Shown in pieces: positions 19,258 to 64,000 of a stretch of 64,000 bases of DNA (within the stretch, counting starts at the first letter, position 1; every line of letters begins with the position of its first letter). The notes under the pieces were generated by a model that was not told the DNA's origin, did not search any database, and worked only from the letters and a program-made list of their open reading frames with translations. Source of the DNA: Terriglobia bacterium. GTDB taxonomy: Bacteria; Acidobacteriota; Terriglobia; 20CM-2-55-15. The stretch spans positions 608,001 to 672,000 of the forward strand of contig CAXWPJ010000002.1 of the NCBI GenBank assembly GCA_963664115.2, read 5' to 3'. Made by a program: the position numbers and the translations under genes.

Positions 19258-19260
19258 TCG

Positions 19261-20808: not shown

Positions 20809-21915
20809 ATGATGAACTCCTGGAACGATTTTCCCACCTCAAGGACAGAAGTCAGGAAATACGGAGGTTCCTTTGACTCGCCTGCCAAGCAGAAACGTAT
20901 CGACGAGTTCGAAAAGACCATAGCCGCGCCCGATTTCTGGTCCGACCAGGAGCGATCCACCGACCTACTCCGTCAGAAAGCCCGCCTGGACGAAAGCATC
21001 GAATTAGACAGCAAGATCAGAGCTTATGTCGAAGATGGGGAAGCGCTGGCCGAGTTGGCGCGTGAGGGTGAGGACGTTGGCGAAGAACTTCCCGAGTTCA
21101 TGGAACAACTTACCGAACTCGTGGAACGTGTTGAATTCCAGATGCTGCTCGGCAGGGAAAACGATCGGTTAAATGGGATTGTCTCGATCCACCCGGGCGC
21201 TGGCGGAACCGAAGCGCAGGACTGGGCGGCTATGCTGATGCGAATGTACCTGCGGTGGGCGGAAAAAGGGGGCTATAAGACCGAGATTCTGGACTATCAG
21301 GATGGAGAGGAAGCCGGGTTGAAATCGGTGACGTTCACTGTTTCGGGCGACTACGCGTACGGATATCTGTCCAACGAAACAGGGGTTCACCGTCTTGTTC
21401 GTATTTCGCCGTTCGATGCGACCAAACGGCGGCATACCTCTTTTGCCTCGGTTTCCGTCTATCCGGAGATCGACGATCAGGTGGAAGTGGACATTGACGA
21501 CAAAGACCTGCGGATCGATACCTACCGTTCCAGCGGTGCCGGTGGTCAGCACGTCAACGTCACGGATTCCGCTGTACGTATCACGCACATCCCAACCGGC
21601 ATCGTCGTGCAATGCCAGAACCAGCGGTCCCAACATAAGAATCGTTCTGTGGCATTGAAGCTTCTTCGGGCGCGAATTTACGAGAAGGAACTGGAACGCA
21701 AACGGGCTGAGGCTCAGGCTGTTGAGGACAGCAAGCTCGACAATGCCTGGGGCAGCCAAATCCGTTCCTACGTCCTCGCTCCCTACCGTATGGTCAAGGA
21801 CCATCGGACCAAGAAGGAAATGGGTGACGTCGATCGGGTCCTCGACGGCGATCTGGAAGGATTCATCAATGCTGCCCTCCAATGGAGAGTGAACCCGAAA
21901 AGAAGTGATAGGTGA
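20805..21915 (+). CDS. prfB: Peptide chain release factor 2, programmed +1 frameshift
   Basis: ATG 20805 reads MNDELLERFSHLKDRSQEIRRFL to CTT TGA C (20871-20877) with GGAGG at 20863-20867; +1 frame continues DSPAK... with SPF and GGQ motifs. Confidence 0.97.
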
Positions 21916-46970: not shown

Positions 46971-49385
46971 TTGAATCGTCCCTGGATTCTTTCTGTCCTG
47001 ATCCTGTTCCTGATCGCTGGCATCCCGACACTGGCGCGCGCGCAGTCGTCCGGTAGCGTTGAGGGCTTCATTGCCCTGCCGACCGGAGACCCTGTGGGCC
47101 GTGCAACCGTGCTGCTCTCCGGTCTGGACCGCGTGGCCGAAACCGACGCCAATGGCCGCTTTCGTTTCGACAACGTACCGGTAGGGACATATGGCTTGGT
47201 GGCATATCGGTGGCTCATGTCGGCTGAAGTCGACCAGGTTCTGGTCGGGCAAGGTCAGACCGGGAACGTCCGAATGCAGCTCGGGTCTGCCCTGGTGGTA
47301 ATGGAAACAGCCCGGCCGGCCGATCCGGCAAGGCTTGCCGAAGCCCCCGAAGCAGGTCTGGTGGCGTCGGCAAATTCCCAATCTCTTGAAGTGCCTGTGA
47401 ACGCCGTGCAGAACCGTTCGACCCCGATCAGCACGTTTGATATGACCCGTGCCGGAGCCTCGACGCTCGGCGATGCAATGGATTCCCGACTGGGATTTAA
47501 CACCCGAAGCTTCGGCCAGAGTATCTCGCGGCCAATTTTCAGGGGATTCGATGGAGACCGGGTTCTGATCCTCGGAGACGGACTTTCTGGTGGGTCGCTT
47601 GCCTACCATTCAGGTGACCATTTCGAGCCGTTTGCCCCGGGCACGATCGAACGGATCGAGTTCCTGCGCGGGCCTTCGACGTTGTTGTACGGCAACAGCC
47701 TGGTCGGCCGTGCGATCAATGTCGTCGGACCTGGCCGGACCCGAACGCCGGCTTCGGGTGAAGGCTGGCGTGGGCGCACGTCCTCCGGATTCGGCTTCGG
47801 TGACGCGTATGCCGGCAGTTCTGTCCAGGCCGAGTACGCGAGCGGCAACTGGCAGTTTTCGCTGGCCGGTAGCAGTCGCCGCGCCGGTGATTACGACTCG
47901 CCCCTCGGCTCGGTTGAGAACTCCGGGAACGGTCTGGCCGATGGCTCGGTGGGCATTACATGGTTCGACGACTCCGCGTTCATGGGTTTCAATTACAGCG
48001 TTGGTCGAGGAAGCTATGGCATACCGGTCGCACCCGAATTCCGATCTGCTAACGCAGCGATCCCCATACCGGATGCAGTCGATGTCGAGTTCCGTCGACA
48101 TGGTGTTGAGTTGTTCGGTGGCGCTCGTGCTGAGTACCTCGCGTTCGAGGGTTTCGAATTCTCGGCGAGTTACAGTTACTGGGACCACGATGAAATCGAA
48201 ACTTTCAATGATGTTGGTCCGTCCATCGCCACAAATTTCGGAAATCGGGTCTTGAGTTACCGCGCTTGGTTTGACCAGAAACGAGCCGGTGTTCTCGACG
48301 GCCGAATCGGATTCTCCACCTCGACCAGGGAATATCGGGCGAACGGCCGGGAGCAATTGTTGCCATCGGTCCGCCGTAACAATCTTGCGGTGTTTGCCGT
48401 CGAAGAACTCGATCTCAGTCCGTTTCTGTTAGAGATGGGTGGCCGTATCGATTATGCGGGAGATGGAGTGCGCGGCTTGCTGACCCGCCGGATCAACCCT
48501 CTTGACGCGGACGCCGGATTCGCGCAGGACTTTTTCCGGGGTCGGTCCTTTGTCGGGGGAACAGGATCCCTTGGCGCGAGTGTCCAGGCCTGGGACATCG
48601 GAGAATTCAGGGTCGACCTGACCAGTGGGTACCGGCAACCCGCAATCGAGGAGCTCTATAGTTTCGGTGCGCATGTCGGCCGTCTCACTTTCGACATCGG
48701 CGACGTCACCCTGCGAGCTGAGCGTTCCAACGGGGCCGAGATCTCATTCACCCACACGCGTCCACGGTTCAGTGCCGAGATGGATGTGTTCTATTACGAC
48801 ATCAAGAACTTCGTCTATTTCGGCCTGAACCAGAATTTCTTGCAGGGCCTTATGGAGGCGGAGTACCAACAGGGGCCGGCCCGGTTCAGCGGCGTTGAGC
48901 TGGCGCTGGATTTCCAACTGCACCGTTCAACCAGGCTGAAAGTTGGGATGGAAACCGTCCAGGCCACGCTCAGGGATCTGGGTACCTCCCCTCCCCGGCT
49001 TCCACCGTTTCGCGCAAGGTTCGGTCTGGACTACCGCCTCGGAGGTCTCCGTTTCAGTCCGGAGCTCATCGTGGCTGATTCCCGTGAGGAGGTGTTTTCG
49101 GGAGAGAATCCAACTCCCGGGTACGGACTGGTCAACATGGCCGCTTCCTATACGCTACCCCGCGAAAACATGTCGCATCAATTTGCGTTCAATGTCTTCA
49201 ACTTAGGGGACAAGCTTTACCGGGACCACAACAGCCTGCTCAAGCGCCTGGTGCCCGCATGGGGCCGTGGCTTCCGGATCACCTACGCGATGGAGTTCAC
49301 CAGACCGGCGCCTTCCGGTGGTGCATCGTCTTTCGATCAGGAAGGCCTGGGGTTGGCTGCGGGCGGGCCGACGCCATTGGACTGA
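46971..49385 (+). CDS. TonB-dependent receptor with N-terminal carboxypeptidase-regulatory-like domain (ZnuD-like)
   Basis: Signal peptide, TDANGRFRFDNVPVGTY, plug SRPIFRGFDGDRV..DG..GDH, IERIEFLRGPSTLLYG, FNLGDKLY; TTG start with GGAG RBS. Confidence 0.9.
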   Translation: MNRPWILSVLILFLIAGIPTLARAQSSGSVEGFIALPTGDPVGRATVLLSGLDRVAETDANGRFRFDNVPVGTYGLVAYRWLMSAEVDQVLVGQGQTGNVRMQLGSALVVMETARPADPARLAEAPEAGLVASANSQSLEVPVNAVQNRSTPISTFDMTRAGASTLGDAMDSRLGFNTRSFGQSISRPIFRGFDGDRVLILGDGLSGGSLAYHSGDHFEPFAPGTIERIEFLRGPSTLLYGNSLVGRAINVVGPGRTRTPASGEGWRGRTSSGFGFGDAYAGSSVQAEYASGNWQFSLAGSSRRAGDYDSPLGSVENSGNGLADGSVGITWFDDSAFMGFNYSVGRGSYGIPVAPEFRSANAAIPIPDAVDVEFRRHGVELFGGARAEYLAFEGFEFSASYSYWDHDEIETFNDVGPSIATNFGNRVLSYRAWFDQKRAGVLDGRIGFSTSTREYRANGREQLLPSVRRNNLAVFAVEELDLSPFLLEMGGRIDYAGDGVRGLLTRRINPLDADAGFAQDFFRGRSFVGGTGSLGASVQAWDIGEFRVDLTSGYRQPAIEELYSFGAHVGRLTFDIGDVTLRAERSNGAEISFTHTRPRFSAEMDVFYYDIKNFVYFGLNQNFLQGLMEAEYQQGPARFSGVELALDFQLHRSTRLKVGMETVQATLRDLGTSPPRLPPFRARFGLDYRLGGLRFSPELIVADSREEVFSGENPTPGYGLVNMAASYTLPRENMSHQFAFNVFNLGDKLYRDHNSLLKRLVPAWGRGFRITYAMEFTRPAPSGGASSFDQEGLGLAAGGPTPLD

Positions 49386-49409: not shown

Positions 49410-51056
49410 ATGAAGAAAGCCGATTCCCTGGCTTTTCTCGCGGTGTTTATTTCTCTTCTGCTTTCTGTGCCGACGACGAGGGCTCAGGAAGCGGATTTCG
49501 GCGACATTGAACTCAGGCGGGCGCCGCTTGTCGGGGAGGCCCGGTTGTCGCTGCAGCGGACCGTCGAAATCGCGCTGGAGAGCAACCCCGACCTCGTCGT
49601 GGAAAGGCTCCGAATAGAGCAGTCCCGGGCGGGTGTCGAGGAAGAAAAAGGCGTCTACGACCCAGTCTTTTCCATGTCCGGTCTTGCAGGACGGCGAGAC
49701 AACGTCATCGCGAGTAGATTTTTTCCGACCGGTGAATTCACCGAAGAGAATTTCGTTTACGGTGCCGGCCTGAACGGGGTGACGCACTTGGGATCCCGTT
49801 ACAGTCTGGATCTGAACTATCAACGTCAGATCTCAACGTCGAACACCCAATCTTTGAGTCCCCAGTACTCGGCTACGCTGGATCTGACTTACAGCCAGCC
49901 TCTGTTTCGCGATTTTGGCACCGATGTGACGCTGACCCAACTCCGGATTGCGCAGCGCGAACAGGACATTTCAGAAGAGAATCTGGCGATTGGTCTGACC
50001 AGCCTGATCTTCGAGGTCGTCGAATCGTACTGGAACCTGGTCTTTGCCACCGAGGACCTGGCTGTACGTCGCGCAAGCTTCGAACTGGCTGAAGCTTTGC
50101 TCGAGCAGACCGAAACGCTTTTTGAATCCGGACAATTATCTGAACTCGACGTCCTCGAGGCGCGGGCGGGTGTCTTCGAGCGACGCGAAGACGTAATCCG
50201 CTTCGAGAACCAAGTCGCTGGGGTCGAAGATCTCCTCAAAATTCTGATGTACGCGGACATGGCAGTTGTGAGCGTGACGCCGACCGAGCCGCTGATCGTA
50301 GTCCCCGTAGATCCGAACCCTCAGGAAAGCAACGACCGGGCTCTGGGTCGACGACCCGAGATCTTGAGGCTCCAGACCGTGCTCGAGCAGCGGCAGAACG
50401 AAACGATTTTTGCGTCCAACCAGGTGCGCCCACGCATCGACCTGAACTTGACGTACGGGATGAGTGGGCTGTCGGGAAGACCCAACTTGACACTCGTAAA
50501 TCCTGGAAATCCGCTACAGGGTTTTGCCGGAAGCACCGTCGCCGGTTCGGTGTTTGCGGGCCTGACACGGCCTCTGGGCGCGTTCAATCGGTTCTTCAGC
50601 GGCGACTCCTTCGACAACTGGAGTGTCGAGTTGCGTGTGGAACTACCCCTGCGCAATCGAACCGCTGAAGCCCGACTTGCCAATGCGGGACTGCGCGAGA
50701 AAGAAAGCCAGGTCACGCTGGCCACCGTTGAGGAACAGGTCGTATTCGAAATCCGCCAGGCGCTGAGGGACCTTTCCACGGCAACCGAGAGCATCGATGC
50801 GTCGCGCGAGGCAGTCCGCTATGTTGAGGACCAGCTCGTTGCGACGCGTACGCGGTTCGAAGCCGGCCTGTCAACCAGCTACGACGTTCTGCGTGTGCTC
50901 GAAACGCTGGCCCTGTCACGGCGGCGCGAGTTGCAGGCCTTGACCGACCACAACATTGCCCGCGCTGCGTTGAGTCTGGCCGAAGGCCGTATTCTGGAAG
51001 ACTTCAACGTCGAGGTGGGTGGGGCATCCCGCTCCAATTCGGGGACATCCTTTTAG
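49410..51056 (+). CDS. TolC family outer-membrane channel
   Basis: Signal peptide, LSLQRTVEIALESNPDL, QPLFRDFG, YWNL, RRPE, RFEAGLST; two-repeat OEP layout. Confidence 0.93.
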   Translation: MKKADSLAFLAVFISLLLSVPTTRAQEADFGDIELRRAPLVGEARLSLQRTVEIALESNPDLVVERLRIEQSRAGVEEEKGVYDPVFSMSGLAGRRDNVIASRFFPTGEFTEENFVYGAGLNGVTHLGSRYSLDLNYQRQISTSNTQSLSPQYSATLDLTYSQPLFRDFGTDVTLTQLRIAQREQDISEENLAIGLTSLIFEVVESYWNLVFATEDLAVRRASFELAEALLEQTETLFESGQLSELDVLEARAGVFERREDVIRFENQVAGVEDLLKILMYADMAVVSVTPTEPLIVVPVDPNPQESNDRALGRRPEILRLQTVLEQRQNETIFASNQVRPRIDLNLTYGMSGLSGRPNLTLVNPGNPLQGFAGSTVAGSVFAGLTRPLGAFNRFFSGDSFDNWSVELRVELPLRNRTAEARLANAGLREKESQVTLATVEEQVVFEIRQALRDLSTATESIDASREAVRYVEDQLVATRTRFEAGLSTSYDVLRVLETLALSRRRELQALTDHNIARAALSLAEGRILEDFNVEVGGASRSNSGTSF

Positions 51057-51069
51057 TCTGGAGCCCAAC

Positions 51070-51885
51070 ATGAAATCAACGATTCGAATAATGTGCGGCG
51101 TGTTGGCCCTCGGCGTCGGCTCTGGCCAGTTTCTTGCTCAACAAGCCGCGACCGGTGTCGTGCGAGCCGAAGAGGCCGTCATCGTTCGCAGCGAAGTTGT
51201 GGGCATCGTCGACCAAATCGATGTCCAGGAAGGCCAGCGCATATCGGAAGGCGAGCCGCTCGTGCACCTGCGGAAGGACCTCCAGGAGATCGGTCTCCGC
51301 CTCGCAGCGGCACGGCTGGATCGGGCTGAAGCCACCGCGGCCGCCTCGGAGGTGACGCTTGAGAATGCCCGGCACACTCTGGCACGAGTGGAAGTCGCGG
51401 CAACTGCGCTGACCGAAAAGGAATACGAGGACGTCATCGATGAGGTGCACCGTTTGGAGGCGCTGCTAAAGGCGCAGGAGGCCGAGGTCGTCGAGTTCCG
51501 CGTGGAGCAGGATCTTCGCCAGCAGGAGTTTGACGCCCGCTCGATTCGTGCCCCCTTCGACGGTACCGTCACAGCGGTCTATCTGGTGCGGGGCGACGCC
51601 GTGGCGCCTCTGGAAACGCCGATTCTGGCCCTCGTGCTTCTGGATCAACTGTACGTCGAGCTGGCACTGCCGGTGTCTGAACTCCCCAGACTCGCAGAAG
51701 GCATGCGGGTTGGAATCGACGTGGAAAGCGAAGTCCTTGGCCCGGCCGGACAGGTGGGCGGTGTCATCCGATATATCAATCCCACCGTCGACCCGTCGAG
51801 TCGCACGTTCCTGGTTAAAGTCGGATTTTCCGATCCGCCCGGACAGATCCGACCTGGAATGCGGGCTGACGTCGAGCTGCCATGA
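51070..51885 (+). CDS. HlyD/RND-type periplasmic adaptor (membrane fusion protein)
   Basis: Lipoyl half-motifs GIVDQIDVQEGQRI and IRAPFDGTV around a coiled coil; INPTVDPSSRTF, IRPGM; ATG 51070. Confidence 0.92.
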   Translation: MKSTIRIMCGVLALGVGSGQFLAQQAATGVVRAEEAVIVRSEVVGIVDQIDVQEGQRISEGEPLVHLRKDLQEIGLRLAAARLDRAEATAAASEVTLENARHTLARVEVAATALTEKEYEDVIDEVHRLEALLKAQEAEVVEFRVEQDLRQQEFDARSIRAPFDGTVTAVYLVRGDAVAPLETPILALVLLDQLYVELALPVSELPRLAEGMRVGIDVESEVLGPAGQVGGVIRYINPTVDPSSRTFLVKVGFSDPPGQIRPGMRADVELP

Positions 51886-51912: not shown

Positions 51913-53775
51913 ATGGAATACAGAGACGAACACCATGATGAGTCGGCGCCGGCCGACCTGATCGACGAGCTGGAAAGCCTTAGACGTTTCAATGGCCCGC
52001 CGGCACAGTTCTGGCCGCTGTTTCTGGAAAAGGCCGGCATGTTGGTGACGGCCCATCTGGCCGTGCTGCTGATGTTTTCCACCGACGACAAGTCCTGGAA
52101 GCGTATGGCCCTGTGGCCTGAGAGCGAGAAGGACACGCTCAAGATGCCGAAGCTGACCGGCGATATCGAGCGGGTGGCCGGTCGTTCCCTGGCCGAACGG
52201 TCCGCGATCAGCTCCGATGATCTTCCACCCGAACTGGGCGATGCCTGCCTGATCGGCCTTCGTCTCGGGACCGGGCAGGATGTCCAGGTCGTGGCCGTCT
52301 TCATCATCGGGAACTCGACCTACACCGATGCCGAAGAGGCGCGAATGCGCCTCAGCCTGATTGCCGATACGCCGAGCCTCTATCAACTCGGGCGCCTGTT
52401 TGACCAGACGCGATCCGATGTCGGCAAGTTCAGCGATTCGCTCGACCTGACGGTCCTGATCAACGACCAGACCCGCTACGTCGCAGCCGCGATGACGCTA
52501 TGCAACGAAGTCGCCTCCCGATTCAACTGCGATCGCGTGTCGCTGGGCTGGTTGAAGGACGGCTATGTCCGGGTCCAGGCCATCAGCCACATCGAACGCT
52601 TCGAGAAGAAGATGGACGTGGTTCAGGCGCTGGAGGCCGTCATGGAAGAGGCTCTGGACCAGGACACGGAAATCGTCTGGCCTTCGCCCCCTGAGGGCCA
52701 CTTCATCACCCGCAGCCACGAGTCGTTTTCGAAACGCGAAGGCGCTTCCGACATCGTGTCGCTTCCGATGCGGATCGAAGGGGTTCCGGTTGCGGTTCTC
52801 ACCTGCGAACGGAGCGGTGATTCGTTCGCTGAAGAAACCGTCCGCGGACTACGACTGCTTTCCGACCTGGCCACACGTCGCCTGGGCGATCTTCGCGACC
52901 GGGACCGGTGGATCGGCGCCCGGGTGGCCGGGGCGGTTCGTGACGGTGCCGGGCGTCTGGTGGGCGTCGAACACACCTTCGCCAAGCTCGCCGGCATCGT
53001 GCTGATGGGTCTTCTGGCGTTCGGAATTTTCGGAACCCTGGAATACCGCGTCGAAGCGCCGTTCGTTCTCAAGTCCGACGATGTCGTCTACGTGTCGGCG
53101 CCTTTTGACGGGTTCATCGATCAGGTGCCCATTGACGTCGGCGATCCGGTGGAACCCGGTGATCTGTTGCTCAGTTTTGACACGCGCGAACTCCTCCTTC
53201 AGGAAGCCACGGCGATCGCAAACCAGATCCGTTACGAGCGGGAAGCCGAGCAGGCCCGGGCCCAGCGCGCAACCGCCGACATGATGATCGCTGAAGCGCT
53301 GGCCGACCAGGCCGGGGCGCAACTGGCACTGGTGCGGCACTTTATTGAACGGGCCGAGGTGCGGGCGCCGTTCAACGGCATTGTCGTGGAGGGCGATCTT
53401 CAGGAACTGTTGGGGACACCGGCTCAAAAGGGAGATGCGCTGTTCCGGATCGCCCGGACCGAGAACCTGTACGCCGAACTCGAACTCGATGAGCGGGACG
53501 CCCAGGACGTGTCGGAGGTGTCGACCGGCGAGATCGCTTTCCTGACCCGCCCGGATCTGGTTTTCCCGATCGTGGTTGAACGGACCGATCCGGTGACGGT
53601 GACCCGCGACGCAGATAATGTCTTCATCGTTCGCGCTAACCTGTCGGGCGAAGCCTCAGACTGGTGGCGGCCCGGCATGAGCGGCATCGCCAAGATCAAT
53701 GCGGGGCGGAGAAACGTCCTCTGGATCCTTACGCACCGAACGATCGATTTTTTGCGAATGTACCTGTGGTGGTAA
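51913..53775 (+). CDS. GAF-like domain + HlyD adaptor fusion protein
   Basis: Cytoplasmic GAF-like region (CDRVSLG, EEALDQD, IVSLPM, AVLTCER), one TM, VSAPFDGFI / VRAPFNGIV, WWRPGMSGIAKI. Confidence 0.85.
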   Translation: MEYRDEHHDESAPADLIDELESLRRFNGPPAQFWPLFLEKAGMLVTAHLAVLLMFSTDDKSWKRMALWPESEKDTLKMPKLTGDIERVAGRSLAERSAISSDDLPPELGDACLIGLRLGTGQDVQVVAVFIIGNSTYTDAEEARMRLSLIADTPSLYQLGRLFDQTRSDVGKFSDSLDLTVLINDQTRYVAAAMTLCNEVASRFNCDRVSLGWLKDGYVRVQAISHIERFEKKMDVVQALEAVMEEALDQDTEIVWPSPPEGHFITRSHESFSKREGASDIVSLPMRIEGVPVAVLTCERSGDSFAEETVRGLRLLSDLATRRLGDLRDRDRWIGARVAGAVRDGAGRLVGVEHTFAKLAGIVLMGLLAFGIFGTLEYRVEAPFVLKSDDVVYVSAPFDGFIDQVPIDVGDPVEPGDLLLSFDTRELLLQEATAIANQIRYEREAEQARAQRATADMMIAEALADQAGAQLALVRHFIERAEVRAPFNGIVVEGDLQELLGTPAQKGDALFRIARTENLYAELELDERDAQDVSEVSTGEIAFLTRPDLVFPIVVERTDPVTVTRDADNVFIVRANLSGEASDWWRPGMSGIAKINAGRRNVLWILTHRTIDFLRMYLWW

Positions 53776-53781
53776 TGATCG

Positions 53782-55935
53782 ATGGCCTTCGGTAATACAT
53801 TCAGCGAATCCTGGCACCGGGTGGCCGGGCTGCGGATCAGCCTGCGGCCCACCGTATCGGCAAGGAAGCAGTTTTTCCGCGGTGAGACCTGGTACGTACT
53901 GGAAGACCCCTTCAACAACAGTTTCTTCCGCTTGCGTCCCGAAGCTTACGAATTCGTTTCCCGCCTGGCACCGGACCGCACGGTTGAAGAGGTTTGGGAA
54001 GGTTGCCTGACGCGCAAACCCGAGGACGCTCCGGGGCAGGAAGACGCGATCCGGCTGCTCAGCCAACTCTATTTCGCAAACCTGTTGTATTTCAAAACGG
54101 CCGGCGACAGCGAGGCGTTGTTTGAGCGGTACCGGCAGCGCCGCCAGCGGGAAACCAAATCCAAGCTCATGTCGATCATGTTCATGCGCATTCCCATGAT
54201 CGATCCCGATCAGATGTTGCGCGCCGTTATGACGGCGATTCGTCTGTTCATCAGCCCGATCGGATTGGCGATATGGGTTGGGGCTCTGGGTTACGCGATC
54301 AAGCTCTTCTTCGACAACTTCGCCGAAGCCGCTGACCAGACCCAGGCCATTCTGGCGCCGTCGAACCTCTTCCTGCTCTATCTGGGCCTGATCGTCACCA
54401 AGACCGTCCATGAGTTCGGCCACGCCATCGTCTGTCGACGGTACGCCGGAGAAGTGCACACGATGGGCATCATGCTGCTGGTGTTCACGCCGATCCCCTA
54501 CATGGACGCCACGTCGAGCTGGTCGTTCCGAAGCCGATGGCAGCGCGCGTTCGTGGGCGCGGCGGGCATGATCTTCGAGCTGTTTGTCGCGTCGATTGCA
54601 ACCGTCGTGTGGGCCAATACCGATGAGGGCACTATACACAGCCTGGCGTACAACATGATGTTCGTCGCGTCGATTTCGACCCTGGTATTCAACGCCAACC
54701 CGCTGCTGCGCTTCGACGGTTACTACATCCTCTCGGACCTGGTCGACATTCCGAACCTGTCGAACCGGTCGTTCCGGCAGATCCGTCACGTCGTCGAGCG
54801 CTACGGATTCGGATACCTGGAATCCGAGAGCCCGTCGGATTCGATGCGCCAGGCCACGCTGCTTGGCGGTTTCTGCGTCCTGAGCGCGGTCTACAAGGTC
54901 CTCGTGTTCACTGGAATCGTTCTGTTCGTGGCCGACAAGCTGTTTCTGGCCGGATTGATCATGGCGGCGGTGTGCGTGTTTGCCTGGCTGGTCGTTCCGT
55001 TAACTCGGCTGCTGACCTACATAGCGACCGGTCCGCACCTGGCGCGGAAGCGGGCCCGCGTTGCCCTGGTTTCGCTCGGTACACTTGGCGTCGTTTTCGG
55101 ATTTCTGGGCGTCTTCCCCTTCCCCAATCATTTCCGTGCCGATGGCGTTCTCGAAGCCGCCCGATTCCAGCTCGTCGCCAACGATGCGTCCGGCTACGTC
55201 GTTGCGGTGCGGACACCACCGGGTGCAACGGTCCAGCCGGGAACCCCGCTGTTCGAACTGGCCGATCCCGAGCTTCAGTTCTCGATCGATTCGGCCGAAG
55301 CCGAGCGTCGGGAAACCCTGGCCTTTATGCAACGGGCCCTGGACAGGCAGATCGCCGAAATTGAGCCGATTCAGAAACGGCTGGACACCATCGAGCAGAA
55401 GATTGCCGACCTGGAACAGGTTCGCGAATCTCTGCTCGTGGTAGCCGCACAAGAAGGTATCTGGGTCGCGGCCGAGTCCGGTCAGCTCGACGGGTCGTGG
55501 GTCCAGCGCGGTTCGATCCTGGGCCAGGTCATCGACGAGGGTCAGTTCCGGTTTGTGGCCGCTGTTCTCCAGGACGAAGCGTCCAACCTGTTCGCCGAAG
55601 CGATTCGAAAGGCCGAGGTCCGTGTTCGCGGACAAGGGGGATTGACCGTCCCGGTCCAGTCCTATGAAGCCATTCCCTTCGAATACCGAAACCTCCCCTC
55701 GGCTGCGCTGGGCTGGCTGGGCGGTGGTGACGTGCCGGTTGCCGCCGATGACGAGACCGGTGTGGCGGCCACCGAGCCGTTCTTCCTGATCTACGCCGAT
55801 CTGGACGACGTGGGTGAGGTGGCGTATCTCCGCGGTCGGCGTGGCGAGATCCGGTTCACCCTGGAGCCGCAGCCGCTGCTGGCGCAGTGGTACACGAAAT
55901 TCCGCCGGTTATTGCAGGAGCGGTACCAGATTTGA
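53782..55935 (+). CDS. PqqD/RRE-like domain + site-2 (M50) metallopeptidase + HlyD adaptor fusion
   Basis: HEFGH (54409-54423) and NANPLLRFDGYY (54691-54726) within TM region; N-terminal YVLEDP..FFRL..AYEF..L..RTVEE winged-helix-like pattern; C-terminal lipoyl/coiled-coil module. Confidence 0.88.
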   Translation: MAFGNTFSESWHRVAGLRISLRPTVSARKQFFRGETWYVLEDPFNNSFFRLRPEAYEFVSRLAPDRTVEEVWEGCLTRKPEDAPGQEDAIRLLSQLYFANLLYFKTAGDSEALFERYRQRRQRETKSKLMSIMFMRIPMIDPDQMLRAVMTAIRLFISPIGLAIWVGALGYAIKLFFDNFAEAADQTQAILAPSNLFLLYLGLIVTKTVHEFGHAIVCRRYAGEVHTMGIMLLVFTPIPYMDATSSWSFRSRWQRAFVGAAGMIFELFVASIATVVWANTDEGTIHSLAYNMMFVASISTLVFNANPLLRFDGYYILSDLVDIPNLSNRSFRQIRHVVERYGFGYLESESPSDSMRQATLLGGFCVLSAVYKVLVFTGIVLFVADKLFLAGLIMAAVCVFAWLVVPLTRLLTYIATGPHLARKRARVALVSLGTLGVVFGFLGVFPFPNHFRADGVLEAARFQLVANDASGYVVAVRTPPGATVQPGTPLFELADPELQFSIDSAEAERRETLAFMQRALDRQIAEIEPIQKRLDTIEQKIADLEQVRESLLVVAAQEGIWVAAESGQLDGSWVQRGSILGQVIDEGQFRFVAAVLQDEASNLFAEAIRKAEVRVRGQGGLTVPVQSYEAIPFEYRNLPSAALGWLGGGDVPVAADDETGVAATEPFFLIYADLDDVGEVAYLRGRRGEIRFTLEPQPLLAQWYTKFRRLLQERYQI

Positions 55936-57917
55936 TCGTTCCCAGCCATGACTACATGCGGACGGCCACGGTGGAACCGCCCGAGTTTCATCGTGGGTGG
56001 GATGGGGCGGCCTACGGCATCGTCGGCGCGTGGAAACGCCGACCAACCACACTCGGCCGCTTCGGGCGCCAGGCGGACCGGATCTATGACATGGCCGGCC
56101 GGCTTGGACATTTGTCCGACAGCGCTCTTCGGGAGCGCATGTCCGGATTTCGGGAGCGATTCCGGTGCCACCGGGTCCGGGATGACGCGGTGGTCTCCGA
56201 GGCTCTGGCCGCGATCGTCGAGGCCGCTGAACGGAGGCTGGGACTGCGGCCATACCCGGTGCAGATCGTCGGTGCCCTGGCCATGGATCACGGATTTCTC
56301 GCCGAGATGGCCACCGGCGAAGGGAAGACGCTCACCGCCTGCCTGCCGATGATCCTGGCCGCCTGGACCGAGCGCCCCGCACACCTGGTCACGGTAAACG
56401 ATTACCTCAGCGACCGCGATGCAACGGAGATGGGTCGCCTCTACGCTTTCTGCGGTGTTTCAGCTGCGGCGGTGACCGCCCCTATGGACCAGCGCGAACG
56501 GTACCGGAACTACCAGAAAGACGTCGTCTACGTCACCAGCAAGGAGCTGGTCGCTGACTTTCTCCGCGACCGGCTGCGGTTGGGCAAACTCGAGCATCCC
56601 ACACGACGGCTGATCGCCGGCATGTTGCCCGGCGGTACCATCCGGCCCGACGAAATCGTGATGCGCGGTCTGGACACCGTGATCGTCGACGAGGCCGACA
56701 GCGTTCTGATCGACGAGGCGGTGACGCCGCTGATCATCTCCCGGGCCCGCGATAACGAGACGCTGCGTGAAGCGTGCCGCATCGCGAGCGAGATTGCAGA
56801 TACGCTGGAGCCCGGCAGCGACTATCAGGTCGATGAGCGGTACAAGGAAGTCCGGATCACCGACGCCGGCGAGGCCCGGGTTCTTGATGCCGCGGCAAAA
56901 CTGCCCGGCGTCTGGCAGGGGACCCTGCGCCGCGAGGAGTTGGTCAAGCAGGCGTTGACCGCGCGCGAATTCTATATCCGGGACAAACAGTACGTCGTCG
57001 ACGACGGCCGATTGACGATCGTCGATGAGTTCACCGGCAGACTGATGCCGAACCGGTCCTGGCGGGCGGGCCTCCACCAGGCCGTTGAAGCCAAGGAAGG
57101 CCTGGATGCCACGCTGCCGACCGAGACCCTGTCCCGGCTGAGTTTTCAGCGGTTCTTCCGGCAGTTCCGGCGAATCGGCGGGATGACAGGGACGGCCAGC
57201 GAAGCAGCTTCCGAGTTCTGGCACATCTACGGGCTGCCCGTCCTTCGGGTCCCGACACACCGGCCGATGGTGCGCGATACGTATCCGGACCGGGTATTTG
57301 CGACCCGGGACGAGAAATTCAACGCGATCGTCGATGAAATCGCGGCCTGTCACGAGTCCGGCCGTCCCGTTCTGGTCGGAACCCGAAACGTCGAAGCCAG
57401 TGAGACTCTCGCCTCACTGCTCCGGTCCCGGAACCTGGAATTCAACCTGTTGAACGCCACCCACCACAGCGACGAAGCACGCATCGTGGCTGCGGCCGGC
57501 CAGCCCGGCAACATCACTATTGCGACGAACATGGCCGGACGTGGGACCGATATCAAGCTGGGCCGCGGCGTGGGAGCCATGGGCGGGCTCCACGTCATTG
57601 CCACCGAGCGCCATGAGGCGCGGAGAATCGACCGTCAGCTCTTCGGACGATGCGCACGACAGGGCGACCCCGGCAGCGCGCGGGCCTATATCAGCGTTGA
57701 TGACGAACTAATCAAGCGCTTTGTGCCGGTCTGGGTACGGAACGGGCTCGAAACTGCCGTTGCCGCCGATTTGCCGGCCGCATCGCAGATGGCGCATAGG
57801 GTGTTTCGATATGCGCAAAAGGCGGCCGAAAAACTCGCATTTCGGCAGCGCGCCTCGGTGCTGCGTGCCGATGAGCACCTGGAACGGAGCCTTGGTTTCG
57901 CCGGTCCCGGCAGCTGA
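55932..57917 (+). CDS. Accessory, C-terminally truncated SecA-type ATPase (SecA_DEAD)
   Basis: EMATGEGKT, VTVNDYL, DEADSVLIDEA, IVDEFTGR, GLHQAVEAKE, TNMAGRGTDI, RRIDRQLFGRCARQGDPG; ~660 aa; TTG 55932 overlaps the upstream TGA, CAGGAG RBS. Confidence 0.93.
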   Translation: MIVPSHDYMRTATVEPPEFHRGWDGAAYGIVGAWKRRPTTLGRFGRQADRIYDMAGRLGHLSDSALRERMSGFRERFRCHRVRDDAVVSEALAAIVEAAERRLGLRPYPVQIVGALAMDHGFLAEMATGEGKTLTACLPMILAAWTERPAHLVTVNDYLSDRDATEMGRLYAFCGVSAAAVTAPMDQRERYRNYQKDVVYVTSKELVADFLRDRLRLGKLEHPTRRLIAGMLPGGTIRPDEIVMRGLDTVIVDEADSVLIDEAVTPLIISRARDNETLREACRIASEIADTLEPGSDYQVDERYKEVRITDAGEARVLDAAAKLPGVWQGTLRREELVKQALTAREFYIRDKQYVVDDGRLTIVDEFTGRLMPNRSWRAGLHQAVEAKEGLDATLPTETLSRLSFQRFFRQFRRIGGMTGTASEAASEFWHIYGLPVLRVPTHRPMVRDTYPDRVFATRDEKFNAIVDEIAACHESGRPVLVGTRNVEASETLASLLRSRNLEFNLLNATHHSDEARIVAAAGQPGNITIATNMAGRGTDIKLGRGVGAMGGLHVIATERHEARRIDRQLFGRCARQGDPGSARAYISVDDELIKRFVPVWVRNGLETAVAADLPAASQMAHRVFRYAQKAAEKLAFRQRASVLRADEHLERSLGFAGPGS

Positions 57918-58075: not shown

Positions 58076-61000
58076 TTGAGTCGAAAGCAAGACAAAGAAC
58101 GCTACAACCTTGAGAACCTCGAGCCCCGAATCCTACTTTCGGGTGACCCCCTCGTCGGTGCCTTAGCCAGTCTTGCGCCCAGGGAGGCCGACTCTGAAGA
58201 GCCCATTCTCACCTCCGTTCAGGAGGTGACGGTTTCGGAAGAAACGCTCTACGAATCCCACACAACCGACTCGGAACCGTACGATCCGGCGGCCTCGGTC
58301 GACGACATTTTCTCTGGTATGACCGGTGAAGATTCTCTCGCCGATGGTGCCGATGACGCGTCCGATTCCTCCGATTCCAGCGACGTCAATTTCCCGATCG
58401 GCGACGACGAAGCCGCGCAAATTGTGCAAGGCCTCGACGAACTGGCCGGCGTCGGCGAGGTGATCAGCGAGTCTGAAACGCTGACCACACCGCTCGATGG
58501 TCTGGGTGATCTATCACTGGGCGACGTCTTCGGCGTGGGCGAAATTCTGGATTCGCGACTGGCGAAATCGGTGTATGACCACTTCGGTGATGCGGTCGAT
58601 CCGCCCACTGTAGAGGGAGTCATAGAGGCCATCCGAAATGGCCTGACTGCCCTGGGTGAACAGGAAATTTCAGTCAGTTCACTCGAGGGTATAGTTGTGT
58701 CTGGCGGCGAACAGATCCGCTTCGACATCGCCTTCACCCTCCGCCAGTCCGGTCAAATCTTTCTCGATCAAGACCTTACCGATTCCGACGGCGCCGAATC
58801 TACCACCTATACCGCAACGCTGAAAGTCGATTTGAGTTTTGGTGTTGATCAAGGCCAGTCCGACAGCTTTTTCCTCATCATTCGTTCTCTTGAGATCGAA
58901 TTGACCGTGAATCAGCCCGGAACGGGAGCTTCTGAGAGCGGCCGTGTCGAGGTCGGGTTCGCTGGGGCGGCCGGGGCAGACGGCGCGCTCAGCGTCGCCG
59001 AACTCGAGGCGATCCAGTCCAGCGGTGCCGAACTGGAGATCGAGGCGACCGGATCGCTGTTCGATGACGGAAGCGCAGATTTTGCGTCACTGGCTGCGAC
59101 CTCTGCGCTGACCACTTCGGGAGCCGCGACCAGCTTCGTGACGTTGGATGAATCCCCTGCCGCAAGCTCGGCAGTGACCACCAACCTCGCCGATCTGACG
59201 CTTGGGCCCAACTCGATCACGACGTTCAATATCGGCGGCACAACCCCCGGCTCCGGATACGACCAGACTATCGTCTCTGGCGACGTCACACTGGATGGCG
59301 AGCTGGCAATCGTCGTGGCCGCCGGCTTCGGCCCGAGCCTGGGCGATACATTCGACATCGTCACGTTCACCGGAAGTGTGAGCGGCGCATTCGTCGACGG
59401 AACCGGCATCTACGGGTTTGGCGATGGTTCGCTGTTCCTTGAGGTCGTCGTAGAAGACAGTACTGCCGAAAGTGACGGTAAGGTCCAGCTGGAAGCCAAG
59501 ACGGCCCCGGGCGGGAATTTCATAACTTCCAGTACGCCACTGCTCAGCGATGTGCTCGGCCTCTATTACAGCGAGTACTTCACGCTGGGCGCTTCGGTCG
59601 CCATCAGCGGTGAGATCAACATCGGCGGATACGTGACCCTCGCGGGAACCTTTGAATTTGGCTTCAGTCTGGATGAGACGGTCACGCTTGGGACCGGATT
59701 GCCGACGACCCTGACTCCCGAGCTCGTGACCACTGTTGGCGCACAAATCGAATTAGCTCTGGCCACGATCCCGGGTACCCAGATTCTTTCCCCTGATCTG
59801 CAGTCGATCACTGGCCTTCCCGTTGCGGTTCTGGAAATCGGCGGTAGCAATATCCACGCGTTCGTGGGTGTGAACGGGCCGTACTGGACAGACCTGAATG
59901 GAAACGGGGACGTCGATACCGGGGAAACCAACGAAAGTGCCACCGGCCTGGCGATTACCAACGTCGATTTCGGTTACGTTGCGATGCAGTTGCTGCCTTC
60001 GGTTGTGGCCTTGCCCCTCAACGCCCAGTTCTTCCAGGCCTTGAAGGCGACCGCATCCCAGGTGGGGTTGGTGGGCGTCCCCAACGTCGAACTGTCGGTC
60101 GATAACGTTCTGATCGAAGTCAACTCGGGTCCGACCTGGACGGCGCTGGGTGTTAGCGGTGACGGGCCGGCGGTGGTCGACTTTGAAGCTAGCTTCCTGG
60201 CCCAGACTGGAACCGACACGGACGGAGACAGCAAGCACGTTGAGCCGGCTGGCTATGAGGTCGGTACCGGCACGGTGCCGGTTTACATCGACCTGGATGG
60301 CAACGAGCGGCTCGGTGCCAGTGTGGACAACGCGCTGCTGTCGATCGGGGGCAGCGACGGCAAGTTTGTCTATGCGAACGGCAACCTGTCGTTCGAGAAG
60401 GGCCCGACCAGCATCGTGACTGTTGCGACCGGTATCCCGGCCAACATCAATGGAACCCCGGCCGGAGACACCATCGAGACGAATTTCGCGACCCGGACGG
60501 GGTTGAGTGGCAGCAGCGCGACACTGTCGGGCGACATGCAGACGATCAGTAACGTTCAGATGGCCAGTCTTCAGATTGGCGGAAGCGCTATTCAGATCTT
60601 CGTGGGCGTCAACGGGCCATACTGGACAGATTCGGACAAGGACGGCAACGTCGATCCCGGAGAAACCAGCGACAACGCGACCGGCGTGTCGATCACCAAC
60701 GTGAACTTCGGTCTGGTGACGATGACGCCGACCCAGGAACTGCCGCTGTTGAGCAGCCAGACCTTCACGGCGTTGAAGCTGACTGGTTCCCAGGTGGGCC
60801 TGGTTGGAGTCCCTGGGGTGGAGTTGTCGGCCGACAACGTACTGGTGGAGGTCAACACGGGTCCGACCTGGACGGCGACGGGTATCAACGGCGATGGCCC
60901 GGCGGTGGTCGATTTTGCCGCCAGCTTCCCGGCGGCGAACGGCTCCCCGGCCGGTTTCGAGGTGCGCACCGGCACGACATCGACGCCCGTCTATATCGAC

Positions 61001-64000
61001 TTCGACGGCAACGAACGAATCGGTGCGAGCGTGGACAACGCGTTGTTGTCGATCGGGGGCAGCGACGGCAAGTTCGTATACGCCAACGGAAACCTGTCGT
61101 TCGAGAAGGGCCCAACCAGCATTGTGACGGTTGCAACCGGTATACCGGCGAATATCGTTGGAACCGCGACCGAAACGGCCTTGAGAGCGCAGTTTGGTGT
61201 GGCGACCCTCGTAAGTAGCAACGTCACGCTGTCGAACGATCTGCAGACCATCAATAACGTGCAGGTTTCAGGCCTTCAGATTGGCGGCAGCAACATTCAG
61301 ATTTTCGCCGGAGTGAACGGGCCGTATTGGACAGATACGGACAAGGACGGCAACGTCGATCCTGGTGAAACCAGCGACAGCGCGACGGGCGTGTCGATCA
61401 CCAACGTGGACTTCGGGTTGGTGACGATGACGCCGACCGTCGAGTTGCCGCTGTTGAGTGACCAGACGTTTACGGCGTTGAAGTTGACCGGTTCCCAGGT
61501 GGGACTGGTCGGTGTCCCGTTTGTGCAGCTGTCGGCCGACAACGTTCTGGTGGAAGTGAACACGGGGCCGACCTGGACGGCGGCTGGTATCAATGGTGAC
61601 GGGCCGGCGGTGATCGATTTTGCCACCAGCTTCCCGGCGGCGGGCGGCTCCCCGGCCGGTTTCGAGGTGCGCACCGGCACAACATCGGCACCGATCTATA
61701 TCGCTTATGACGGCAACGAGCGGATCGGTGTAAGCGTGGACAACGCGTTGTTGTCGATCGGGGATAGCAGTGGCAAGTTCGTCTATGTGAACGGCGACTT
61801 CTCGTTCGAAAAGGGCCCGACCAGTATCGTGAGTGTCGCGACCGGTCTTTCCAGCGACCAGCTGCCAGGCGTTCCGGCCCTCATAAAAGCGCAATTCTTG
61901 GCCGAGGCGTTCCTGAATCAAACCAACGCGACCTTGTCGGCCGACCTGCAGACGATCAGCAACGTTCAGATGTCGAGTCTGCAGATTGGTGGCAGCAACA
62001 TTCAGGTCTTCGTGGGCTTGGGCGGACCGTACTGGACGGACCTGGATCGCAATGATGATGTCAGTTGGGCATTGCCCGATGGAACCACCCGGACCAACGC
62101 CAACGGCACGCCGATGGCGAATTTTGTCCACACTGATGGCGTCACCTACGGTGACCTCAACGGCGACGGTGTGGTGGATGCGAACGAAACGGCCGAGCTG
62201 AGCGAAAACGCGACCGGATTCGCAATCACCAACGTCAATTTTGGTCTTGTCATGTTGACGCCGACCCAGGAACTGCCGATGCTGGGCAGCCAGACCTTCA
62301 CGGCTCTGAAGCTGACCGCCACCCAGGTCGGTCTGGTGGGCATCGATGAAGTTCAGATCAGCGCGAATGACATCACCGTCAGCGTGAACGTCGGGCCAGA
62401 TTGGACAGGTCTGGCTAGCGGGCAGGGACCGGCGGTCGTTGATTTCGTCAACAGTTACCCGGCTGAAGCCAGCAACACCGACAGCGACAACGATGGACTG
62501 TTGGGCGAGCCGGCCGGCTTCCAGGTGCGTACCGGCACTACATCGGCGCCGATCTATATCGATTTCGACGGCAACGAGCGAATCGGCGCCAGGATCGAAA
62601 AAGTCACGCTGAAGATCTCCGAAGTTGTCCATGCGACCGGCAGCATCGAGTTCCTCAAAGGCCCCGTGCAGAGGGTCGGTCTGACCGGCGGGGGCGATAA
62701 GCAGCTGTCGTTCATGACCATTGGCGGGTCCAACCTCCACGCGTTCATTGGCATGGACGGTCCGTACTGGACGGACCTGGACGCCGATGACGACATCAGC
62801 TGGGCCTTGCCGGATGGGACCACCCGGACCAACGCCAATGGCACGGCGATGGCGGATTTCATCCACACTGATGGCGTCACCTACGGTGACCTCAACGGCG
62901 ACGGCAAAGTCGATGCCAATGAGACGGCTGAGCTGAGCACGGAAGCTGTGGGGCTGGTCATCAACGACTTCGATTTCGGCCTGGCAATTATGTCGCCGAC
63001 GAGCCCATTCGACTTCGTCGACTACTTCGCCCTCAAGGCCAGTGCCGATCAGATCGCTCTGGTGGGTATCGACGACGTGACGATCTCGGGCGAGGACATC
63101 AAGGTCGCAGTCAACCATTCCAGCCCCAGTCTCAAAGGCATACCGATCTTCCCGGTCGTCGATTTCAGCAACACAACTGTCCGGCCGGAGTTCGCCAACG
63201 AGGAGTTGGCGCTGTTCGACCAGAATATCAGCGGACGAATCACGCTTGGCGACCTGGCGACCCTGAATGCAGCACTTCCTGCCGCATCCAGATTCGCCGA
63301 CCTCGCGGGAGTCTCCCTGACCGATGCCACACCGGTCGATCACGAAGGCTTGCTCGCCATCCTGAACACGAACGACGCCGGAGACAGTCGGGGCATCATC
63401 GACATCGACGAAGCCGCGGCGTTGCTCGGCGGTGCGACGGCGGTTTCGCAGGTCGAGAATGCGGACATCGACCTCGATGGCAAGATCGATCCGCTCGGTT
63501 TCGAGATTGGCACCGGCGGCGATCCGGTGTACCTGGACATGAATTCGGTCCTGATACGCGCGCAGGGATTTGTCGACATCAAGATTCTTGATGTCGTATT
63601 CCTGTCCGGCAGTGTCGCCTTTGAACTCGGGCCCATCCACACGGTGACCCTGGCCGACGGCGTGACCACCAAGAGCGTCAGCACGATGACCATCGGCGCG
63701 GCCAACGTGACCGGATTCATCGGTGTAGACGGGCCGTACTGGACCGATCTGGACGGCGATCACGAGGTTTCCTGGTCGGATGCGAACGGCGACCCGTTGG
63801 TCGATACGGATGGTGACGGTGTCGTCGATGCGAACGAGACCTCTGAGCTGAACGGCGATGCAGTCGGCTTCCACGTGACCGATCTCGATATCGGTATCAC
63901 CCTGATGGCCGCGACTGCGCTTAATGATCTGGGCGTATACCTCGCCGCCAAGCTCGACGTGAACAGCTTCGGCCTGATCGGAATCCCCGGGCTTACGGCG
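58076..64000 (+). CDS. Giant LEPR-XLL-motif acidic repeat protein, probable secreted adhesin/surface protein (partial, >=1975 aa)
   Basis: TTG 58076 (first start after in-frame TAA 58025) reads MSRKQDKERYNLENLEPRILLSGDP...; frame still in register at the window end (..NSFGLIGIPGLTA); six GPYWTD-anchored repeats with DxDxDG loops. Confidence 0.92.
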   Translation, partial: MSRKQDKERYNLENLEPRILLSGDPLVGALASLAPREADSEEPILTSVQEVTVSEETLYESHTTDSEPYDPAASVDDIFSGMTGEDSLADGADDASDSSDSSDVNFPIGDDEAAQIVQGLDELAGVGEVISESETLTTPLDGLGDLSLGDVFGVGEILDSRLAKSVYDHFGDAVDPPTVEGVIEAIRNGLTALGEQEISVSSLEGIVVSGGEQIRFDIAFTLRQSGQIFLDQDLTDSDGAESTTYTATLKVDLSFGVDQGQSDSFFLIIRSLEIELTVNQPGTGASESGRVEVGFAGAAGADGALSVAELEAIQSSGAELEIEATGSLFDDGSADFASLAATSALTTSGAATSFVTLDESPAASSAVTTNLADLTLGPNSITTFNIGGTTPGSGYDQTIVSGDVTLDGELAIVVAAGFGPSLGDTFDIVTFTGSVSGAFVDGTGIYGFGDGSLFLEVVVEDSTAESDGKVQLEAKTAPGGNFITSSTPLLSDVLGLYYSEYFTLGASVAISGEINIGGYVTLAGTFEFGFSLDETVTLGTGLPTTLTPELVTTVGAQIELALATIPGTQILSPDLQSITGLPVAVLEIGGSNIHAFVGVNGPYWTDLNGNGDVDTGETNESATGLAITNVDFGYVAMQLLPSVVALPLNAQFFQALKATASQVGLVGVPNVELSVDNVLIEVNSGPTWTALGVSGDGPAVVDFEASFLAQTGTDTDGDSKHVEPAGYEVGTGTVPVYIDLDGNERLGASVDNALLSIGGSDGKFVYANGNLSFEKGPTSIVTVATGIPANINGTPAGDTIETNFATRTGLSGSSATLSGDMQTISNVQMASLQIGGSAIQIFVGVNGPYWTDSDKDGNVDPGETSDNATGVSITNVNFGLVTMTPTQELPLLSSQTFTALKLTGSQVGLVGVPGVELSADNVLVEVNTGPTWTATGINGDGPAVVDFAASFPAANGSPAGFEVRTGTTSTPVYIDFDGNERIGASVDNALLSIGGSDGKFVYANGNLSFEKGPTSIVTVATGIPANIVGTATETALRAQFGVATLVSSNVTLSNDLQTINNVQVSGLQIGGSNIQIFAGVNGPYWTDTDKDGNVDPGETSDSATGVSITNVDFGLVTMTPTVELPLLSDQTFTALKLTGSQVGLVGVPFVQLSADNVLVEVNTGPTWTAAGINGDGPAVIDFATSFPAAGGSPAGFEVRTGTTSAPIYIAYDGNERIGVSVDNALLSIGDSSGKFVYVNGDFSFEKGPTSIVSVATGLSSDQLPGVPALIKAQFLAEAFLNQTNATLSADLQTISNVQMSSLQIGGSNIQVFVGLGGPYWTDLDRNDDVSWALPDGTTRTNANGTPMANFVHTDGVTYGDLNGDGVVDANETAELSENATGFAITNVNFGLVMLTPTQELPMLGSQTFTALKLTATQVGLVGIDEVQISANDITVSVNVGPDWTGLASGQGPAVVDFVNSYPAEASNTDSDNDGLLGEPAGFQVRTGTTSAPIYIDFDGNERIGARIEKVTLKISEVVHATGSIEFLKGPVQRVGLTGGGDKQLSFMTIGGSNLHAFIGMDGPYWTDLDADDDISWALPDGTTRTNANGTAMADFIHTDGVTYGDLNGDGKVDANETAELSTEAVGLVINDFDFGLAIMSPTSPFDFVDYFALKASADQIALVGIDDVTISGEDIKVAVNHSSPSLKGIPIFPVVDFSNTTVRPEFANEELALFDQNISGRITLGDLATLNAALPAASRFADLAGVSLTDATPVDHEGLLAILNTNDAGDSRGIIDIDEAAALLGGATAVSQVENADIDLDGKIDPLGFEIGTGGDPVYLDMNSVLIRAQGFVDIKILDVVFLSGSVAFELGPIHTVTLADGVTTKSVSTMTIGAANVTGFIGVDGPYWTDLDGDHEVSWSDANGDPLVDTDGDGVVDANETSELNGDAVGFHVTDLDIGITLMAATALNDLGVYLAAKLDVNSFGLIGIPGLTA
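59876..64000 (+). repeat. Intragenic tandem repeats of ~235-325 codons
   Basis: GPYWTD codons start at 59876, 60614, 61319, 62024, 62759, 63731 (spacings 738, 705, 705, 735, 972 bp). Confidence 0.9.

Follow-up and report, generated by a model that had tools for sequence, protein, structure and literature searches.

Peptidase-containing ATP-binding cassette (ABC) transporters read and cut an N-terminal leader on the cytoplasmic side and, with an adaptor and TolC, export their substrate in one step. Here we describe a gene, at positions 53782..55935 of a 64,000-nucleotide stretch from a Terriglobia bacterium (assembly GCA_963664115.2, contig CAXWPJ010000002.1, positions 608,001 to 672,000; the whole stretch is called the window), whose product joins in one chain a domain with the fold of a recognition element for peptides made by the ribosome and modified after translation (RiPPs; RiPP recognition element, RRE), an intramembrane M50 protease and an adaptor. 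We lean towards a reading in which this protein binds the leader of a giant protein encoded downstream, cuts it after its LEPR motif, and forms an export conduit with two further adaptors and TolC. The three domains, the conservation of the catalytic residues, the conserved operon and the co-occurrence of gene and leader are established.

A planctomycete export motif was reportedly proposed by Studholme in 2004. The motif RRLxxExLExRxLLA (PF07595) is regarded as an export signal and occurs in 8 of the 10 longest Tuwongella proteins; the part of the source that treats it, or LEPR-XLL, assigns it no machinery (PMC8567305). A 2026 preprint on the LEPRxLL giants of Chlorochromatium places sapC beside them and proposes TolC, SapC and HlyD as their partners; its main text mentions neither an M50 protein nor a peptidase.

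Kamneva, Poudel and Ward (2015; PMC4452313) described a secondary SecA_DEAD/Peptidase_M50/GAF/HlyD/OEP module, noted that its ABC transporter was missing, and proposed the M50 protein as a pore; the words 'PqqD' and 'giant', and a cargo, are absent from the main text, which holds no export experiment. RREs fused to a site-2 protease led to the discovery of daptide clusters; as the relevant passages describe, daptide precursors carry ELExMEAP, the products begin after its Pro, and the RRE-bearing MpaB/MpaC pair requires L(-7) and M(-4) for processing (PMC10036551). EpeP, an M50 protease, is thought to perform both cleavage and export, according to a review (PMC10885120).

Domain structure and catalytic residues

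Coordinates refer to the window, and to its + strand unless stated otherwise. The gene and the parts of its product are the following:

53782..55935, +, RRE-M50-adaptor fusion gene, an open frame of 717 aa
53830..54096, +, RRE/PqqD-fold domain, residues ~17-105, predicted cytoplasmic (structure comparison)
54187..55116, +, M50 site-2-type membrane protease, residues ~136-445 (Pfam, NCBIfam, AlphaFold model)
54409..54423, +, HEFGH zinc motif, residues 210-214, with H210/E211/H214
54691..54720, +, NANPLLRFDG (NxNPxxxFDG), residues 304-313, with the third zinc ligand D312
55117..55881, +, periplasmic adaptor (membrane fusion protein, MFP) domain, residues ~446-700 (structure comparison)

Peptidase_M50 (PF02163) matched the protein with 35.4 bits (cut-off 27.2). 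The best NCBIfam match was the daptide intramembrane metalloprotease NF041824 (158.6 bits, E 2.4e-46, cut-off 300), and the EpeP/YydH model NF058609 matched weakly (32 bits, cut-off 225). A homologue search of a large protein set gave 5,392 matches among the 7,999 candidates scored, and chance or artefact was rejected on this ground. A first-pass annotation, made from the sequence alone, had placed an RRE-like domain, an M50 protease and an adaptor in one chain; all three were found in the single 717-aa frame. The zinc ligands that it had read as intact in the membrane part, HEFGH and NxNPxxxFDG, were both located there and are nearly invariant: in an alignment of 149 homologues, 29-71% identical to the window protein, H210, E211, N304, N306, P307 and D312 were present in 149/149 sequences and H214 in 148/149, so that the loss of catalytic residues among homologues, which would have spoken against that annotation, was not observed. 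HExxH was also kept in 60/60 more distant relatives. The membrane domain therefore carries the conserved HExxH and NxxPxxxxDG motifs of M50 proteases; because the zinc and catalytic residues are kept across the 149 homologues the protease is very probably active, and the reading as an inactive protease was rejected.

An AlphaFold model made from the homologue alignment reached a mean pLDDT of 93.0. In this model the M50 part is predicted to have some seven helices in the membrane, along with a beta-hairpin that is re-entrant (residues 228-241), and resembles RseP (9j83; Z 8.7, root-mean-square deviation, rmsd, 3.9, 163 residues aligned). Residues 446-700 form a complete adaptor with barrel, lipoyl domain and hairpin (MexA, MacA and EmrA at Z 14.0-14.8), fuller than the lipoyl/coiled-coil adaptor first described. 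Helix count and basic loops suggest about seven crossings, which would place the RRE and the active site in the cytoplasm and the adaptor in the periplasm.

The N-terminal domain is modelled as three strands (residues 26-32, 35-42 and 47-51) followed by three helices (53-60, 68-78 and 86-98), the PqqD-like pattern that had been read in these ~100 residues; folded alone, the domain kept the same pattern (pLDDT 86.2). Compared with 48,161 solved chains, it matched seven at Z >= 8, four of which are RRE/PqqD domains and three winged helices of other enzymes. The four, in agreement with the RRE fold that a structural check had been expected to reveal, were TfuB1 (6jx3; Z 9.0, rmsd 3.1, 84 aligned), TbiB1 (5v1u; Z 8.7, rmsd 3.2, 83 aligned), TigE (Z 8.4, rmsd 2.5, 83 aligned) and PqqD (5sxy; Z 8.3, rmsd 2.5, 87 aligned). 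The four top rows of a Foldseek search were lasso-peptide RREs. The best ESM Atlas cluster was PqqD-like (0.96, 224/256 features), with PF05402 on 41% of its members, and PF05402 was present on 17/120 of the shorter homologues listed, many of which are entries named partial. The Pfam PqqD family (PF05402) had no match at E<=0.1 in the window protein or elsewhere in the genome, an NCBIfam scan of the N-domain gave no match, and a sequence-profile search of solved structures, which returned adaptor and lipoyl matches and a weak match to MJ0392 (E 0.054), matched nothing to the N-domain. Since Pfam and NCBIfam were silent, the RRE assignment rests on structure, language-model features and homologues; by these, the modelled domain is an RRE/PqqD-type winged helix of three strands then three helices. 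Arg50, in strand 3, is Arg in 141/149 homologues and Lys in 6/149; covariation of this residue with leader type was rejected as evidence, being mixed across branches.

An operon conserved without an ABC transporter

The partners of the fusion gene and the leader-bearing giant are encoded around it:

49410..51056, +, TolC-family outer-membrane channel, 548 aa (PF02321, 157 bits)
51019..51885, +, stand-alone adaptor (MFP; TIGR01730, 129 bits, over cut-off); likely start ATG 51070 behind a GGAG site
51913..53775, +, GAF-domain adaptor fusion, 620 aa (PF01590 and PF13437 over cut-off)
55887..57917, +, shortened SecA-like ATPase (SecA_DEAD, 302 bits); likely start TTG 55932, overlapping the stop of the M50 gene
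58076..64000, +, giant LEPR-XLL protein, likely cargo, running off the window (NF012209)
58109..58141, +, leader motif LENLEPRILLS, residues 12-22
58127-58129, +, codon of Arg18, after which a cut is predicted from the daptide register

The gene order is thus TolC, adaptor, GAF-adaptor, RRE-M50-adaptor, short SecA and LEPR-XLL giant. The motor motifs of the short SecA are intact; SecA_SW had no match in it at E<=0.1, and a canonical SecA of 915 codons is encoded elsewhere in the genome, on contig C4. In a survey of 43 related loci, in which genes were counted where the flank was long enough, the GAF-adaptor was present in 40/40, the SecA-like gene in 36/37 and TolC in 28/34; the leader pattern lay within 10 kb in 13/43. 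An ABC ATPase was found by tblastn in 1/43 loci and not in the window, the same queries matching 48 places in the genome as a control; this controlled figure was adopted in place of the 0/43 obtained with a strict pattern.

This gene set is that of the 2015 module as its authors define it: a short SecA_DEAD protein without SecA_SW beside a canonical SecA elsewhere, M50-HlyD, GAF-HlyD and HlyD proteins, often an OEP, and no ABC transporter. The window protein is a member of that uncharacterised module. Clusters described below, which have DUF4347 giants and no SecA, fall outside the SecA-anchored search that defined it.

Three further observations concern these genes. A TonB-dependent receptor gene (46971-49385, +; best match ZnuD, below cut-off) lies directly upstream of tolC; a similar gene is upstream in L001 and not generally in related loci, so it is probably outside the module. 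A second RRE-M50-adaptor gene in the same genome (contig C4:44265-46553, -) is 26% identical, has an intact HExxH and lies beside transposase-like frames; no partner genes or cargo were seen around it. In L039 the short SecA is followed by a frame (14308-15153, -) that putatively encodes SapC.

The LEPR-XLL giant and co-occurrence of its leader with the fusion gene

The giant's frame spans 6,576 codons from stop to stop on contig C2. The open frame from 58076 starts with ERYNLENLEPRILLSGDP, which scored 31.3 bits against NF012209 (cut-off 17), the sole match of this model in the genome; no hydrophobic Sec signal was seen in the giant. The consensus from 49 leaders, gathered with a pattern that fixes several columns, is FxLExLEPRxLLSAD, with Glu commonest (44%) at the first x. 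The tag occurs on open frames as long as about 27,800 codons.

Co-occurrence was counted in three phylum samples, 703 genomes in total, with orthologue thresholds set at score gaps after the data had been seen. In the organism's own phylum (301 genomes, full-length orthologue at E<=2e-115), the orthologue was present in five genomes, and NF012209 matched 4/5 of these and 0/296 of the others, which include G023, flagged as unpublished; in the fifth, a giant with the leader is encoded next to the operon. Among the 201 genomes of the phylum of L003, 15 had the orthologue, and the motif (E<=0.001) was found in 14/15 of them and in 0/186 others, eight weak matches to NF012209 (E 0.004-0.04, for the most part in short frames) being excluded from the count; the fifteenth was matched by the leader alignment (E 5e-7). 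The phylum of L002 (201 genomes) had the orthologue in seven genomes and the motif in seven, with an overlap of five. Pooled, the leader was present in 25/27 genomes with the orthologue and in 2/676 without it, three of the 27 being seeds and related genomes not being independent. Ten further genomes were reached through loci, three of them seeds or overlapping, and the motif was found in 9/10.

PF07595, applied to five orthologue genomes, matched 4/5 at E<=0.1 and none over cut-off; these matches, two of which are not leaders of giants, were not used. The giant's frame ends in a repeated block (contig C2:685755-685796, beyond the window) and is followed, in another frame, by 1,204 codons with the same repeats; its end is either a real break or an assembly slip. 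In L004 two tandem leader-bearing frames, one of them short, follow the short SecA (14285-15103 and 15292-21201), and many genomes have several unlinked LEPR-XLL giants for one operon.

Relation to the daptide peptidase MpaP and to leader-cleaving exporters

The family profile of the window protein aligned with MpaP over 428 columns that include the N-domain (probability 99.7, E 1.7e-25). By this comparison the RRE and M50 unit is homologous to the daptide peptidase over both domains. Membership of the MpaP family itself was rejected, since a true MpaP scores 481.8 bits against NF041824 and the window protein is under the cut-off of 300; neither short Thr-ending precursors nor MpaB/C/D/M enzymes were found among its neighbours, which are TolC, adaptors, the SecA-like protein and the giant. 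As in MpaP/DapP (NF041824), the RRE is N-terminal to a site-2 protease and the leader ELExMEAP is in register with (F)ELExLEPR. Unlike MpaP, the window protein has a lipoyl/hairpin adaptor, a TolC partner and a cargo of >6,500 aa instead of about 50, and its operon, unlike daptide clusters, has no Dap modifying enzymes. By eye, the C-terminal ~125 residues of one MpaP (L109:6458-8098) resemble the adaptor barrel and last helix without lipoyl domain or hairpin; the profile alignment stops earlier.

Streptomyces daptide precursors read QELEALEAP-GW. A profile of the LEPR leader (positions -9 to -1) put the daptide Pro on the leader Arg in 6/8 precursors, with scores in the top 0.14-0.3% of 2,156 background N-termini (shuffle p<=0.006). 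This modest match suggests that the two leaders align in register and, because the daptide Pro falls on the leader Arg, a cut after Arg18 is predicted.

The window protein can be likened to the C39-ABC-HlyD-TolC exporters only if it binds and cuts the leader as proposed. Unlike them, it has neither a C39 peptidase nor an ABC domain, its protease is a zinc membrane enzyme and not a cysteine peptidase, and it is accompanied by three different adaptors, its own included, and by a SecA-type ATPase or none; membership of the peptidase-ABC family was rejected because C39 and ABC domains are missing from both the protein and the window. The first-pass annotation had called it an analogue of a peptidase-ABC transporter built from unrelated parts, which holds with respect to those transporters and is otherwise overstated, RRE and M50 being homologous to MpaP and a known RiPP pairing. 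We know of no EpeP with an adaptor fusion. As far as the review describes EpeP/YydH, it is likewise an intramembrane M50 protease with a leader-bearing peptide as its substrate, which it matures and is also believed to export; unlike the window system it is Gram-positive and handles a small peptide.

Sister branches

Weaker relatives (E 1e-15 to 1e-71) are found in many genomes without NF012209. Proteobacterial plasmids carry giant-TolC-adaptor-adaptor-M50 clusters without SecA, whose giants have a variant tag (ALEPRFMFD, ALESRQLFD, SLEPRMLFD) ahead of a DUF4347 domain. The LE-x-R tag was present in 16/29 SecA-less loci read; in four of the 13 tagless ones a large frame is cut at the locus edge, and L123 and L124 lack the tag although the start of the neighbouring gene is covered. 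No ATPase is encoded in the annotated stretches of these sister clusters. The tag thus appears to track the M50 fusion rather than SecA; its retention in loci without SecA means that SecA is not required to read it.

In 3/16 tagged SecA-less loci the tag is carried by two short precursors each (~110-140 aa), such as FEMETLESRELFA in L126. The annotation of L126 and L133 includes radical SAM, PqqD and nucleotidyltransferase genes and is RiPP-like. These loci (L126:641-11120, L128 and L133:8744-19999), from AT-rich genomes of the verrucomicrobial sample, hold a nucleotidyltransferase, the two ~110-140-aa precursors with FExExLESRxLFA, a radical SAM protein, a stand-alone PqqD, adaptors and the RRE-M50-adaptor, with TolC as well in L133; each looks like a RiPP cluster that uses an RRE-M50-adaptor exporter.

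DUF4347 or Ig-like giants with a LE-x-R-x-(M/L)-F-D-type tag stand beside TolC, adaptors and RRE-M50-adaptor, with no SecA or ABC gene, in L115 (2757-2800, +), L116, L117, L120, L121, L122, L125, L131, L134, L137 and L139; one version of this cluster is on many E. coli and Citrobacter plasmids. In a branch with three GAF domains (L049-L062), 8/14 loci have, beside a sigma-54 regulator, genes that point towards the M50 gene and encode small proteins whose first ~35 residues are conserved and which contain short Lys/Ala-rich repeats (L050:8465-9049, +; L055:11375-11749, -; L060:11230-11508, -). One of them scored weakly, below cut-off, against histone H1-like models. They are possible cargo.

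In a quick tree of 61 RRE and M50 units, the SecA type formed one group (15 rows, SH-aLRT 99; L145 was labelled SecA-type by score, with no SecA seen). The window protein grouped with L001 and a Desulfuromonas locus and not with four other orthologues of its own phylum, a placement that suggests transfer.

Proposed mechanism and alternatives

In the reading towards which we lean, the cytoplasmic RRE would probably hold the F-E-L-E-x-L-E stretch of the leader as an added strand, as in solved RREs. The active site, which the predicted topology puts on that same side of the membrane, would on balance be expected to cut between Arg18 and Ile19, as daptides are cut after ELExMEAP. The adaptor domain is likely to dock on TolC together with the GAF-adaptor and the stand-alone adaptor. 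More doubtfully, the membrane helices of the M50 protein and of the GAF-adaptor might form the passage, the short SecA being an accessory pusher in this branch only. Co-occurrence, the sister clusters and the daptide precedent give strong indirect support to the LEPR-XLL leader belonging with the RRE-M50-adaptor protein.

Several observations weigh against this reading. Winged helices of other enzymes tie with the RREs in the structure comparison (Rv2067c, Z 9.2; NovN, 8.7; PKMT2, 8.1), so that the fold is settled and leader binding is not thereby proven, and no Foldseek row of the N-domain reached E<=0.001. The eight daptide precursors come from two near-identical loci and were compared with a pattern-built leader alignment; two of the eight scored best out of register, the leader-daptide profile-profile probability was 8% over 7 columns, and no daptide model was listed for 10 leaders. 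The passages on MpaP state leader removal in the discussion, with no knock-out or in vitro assay (PMC10036551). Conservation of the motif past the Arg (xLLS) fits a cut further on, or none. The gene was found without a leader in G610, G641 and G509 and the motif without the fusion in G624 and G646; a pattern search found no LE-x-R leader in the 14-locus three-GAF branch, of the same architecture, or for the genome's own paralogue on C4. In the literature, covered largely outside subscription journals, we found no paper linking the tag to this protein, and no binding, cleavage or export data for it.

It is unlikely, in our estimate, that the protein is a processing station that binds and cuts the leader and bridges to TolC while a separate transporter, an ABC exporter or SecYEG via the short SecA, moves the chain. 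M50 proteases are not generally regarded as established channels, and daptide clusters encode ABC transporters beside MpaP. Elsewhere in the genome are two unlinked C39-ABC-HlyD loci, with C39-ABC genes placed on contigs C9 and C10, as well as further ABC exporters, and Gly/Asp repeats of an RTX-like (repeats-in-toxin) kind occur in the giant; both points weigh against the conduit and make a partner acting in trans possible. L017, L127 and L129 have an ABC ATPase close to the cluster, and where sister clusters encode no ATPase the energy must come from elsewhere. However, 42/43 orthologue loci have no ABC gene, no LapB/LssB-type exporter (TIGR03375) scored over cut-off in the genome, the wing domain associated with SecYEG contact is missing from the short SecA, and the cluster moves between phyla as a unit. 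The adaptor and TolC of type I secretion are present in the operon itself.

We regard as improbable that the leader stays uncut, as an address tag for the RRE to read, and that the protease cuts elsewhere, at a retention segment, a jammed chain or a C-terminus. The motif is equally conserved before and after the Arg, as in one continuous binding epitope; the M50 enzymes TglG and TmoG cut at C-termini, according to a review (PMC10885120); and the Chlorochromatium preprint, in its main text, reports complete LEPRxLL giants, in which the loss of 18 residues would not show. Against this, the homologous daptide RRE-M50 sits with precursors cut straight after the motif in the same register, and RRE and active site are predicted on the same side of the membrane. 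A regulatory site-2 protease that cuts a membrane regulator, for example the GAF-adaptor, with the giant as a merely co-regulated neighbour, is very improbable. A GAF domain is always adjacent, and the three-GAF branch adjoins a sigma-54 regulator (13/15 stretches), a kinase-like gene and FHA-GAF-SpoIIE phosphatases, but TolC and the three adaptors are components of export, the leader follows the gene at the level of whole genomes, unlinked copies included, and in NCBIfam the protease is best matched by RiPP maturation enzymes.

Significance

The operon and the suggestion of the M50 protein as a pore date from 2015, and the pairing of RRE and M50 is known from RiPPs; the present analysis links leader, RRE and protease, naming the bond, and adds the branches that lack SecA and those that are RiPP-like. 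The conduit reading points to a single bond (Arg18-Ile19), a single domain and a single catalytic residue, and the compact versions found in culturable Azospirillum, Methylosinus and Cupriavidus bring a test within practical reach. It is possible, though we would stop short of calling it probable, that these proteins form a separate one-step secretion class, with a RiPP-derived RRE-M50 leader peptidase fused to an adaptor as its core, which would read and remove an (E-L-E-x-)L-E-x-R leader and, with no ABC transporter, pass into TolC cargo of any size between 110-residue precursors and megadalton adhesins, in SecA-powered and ATPase-free branches, the horizontal spread of which would extend to E. 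coli plasmids. As a secretion tool for very large cargo, a cleavable tag of 18 residues would be useful. If true, the conduit reading would join the export signal of 2004, which had no machine, to the machine of 2015, which had no cargo, and would explain how some of the largest bacterial proteins leave the cell.

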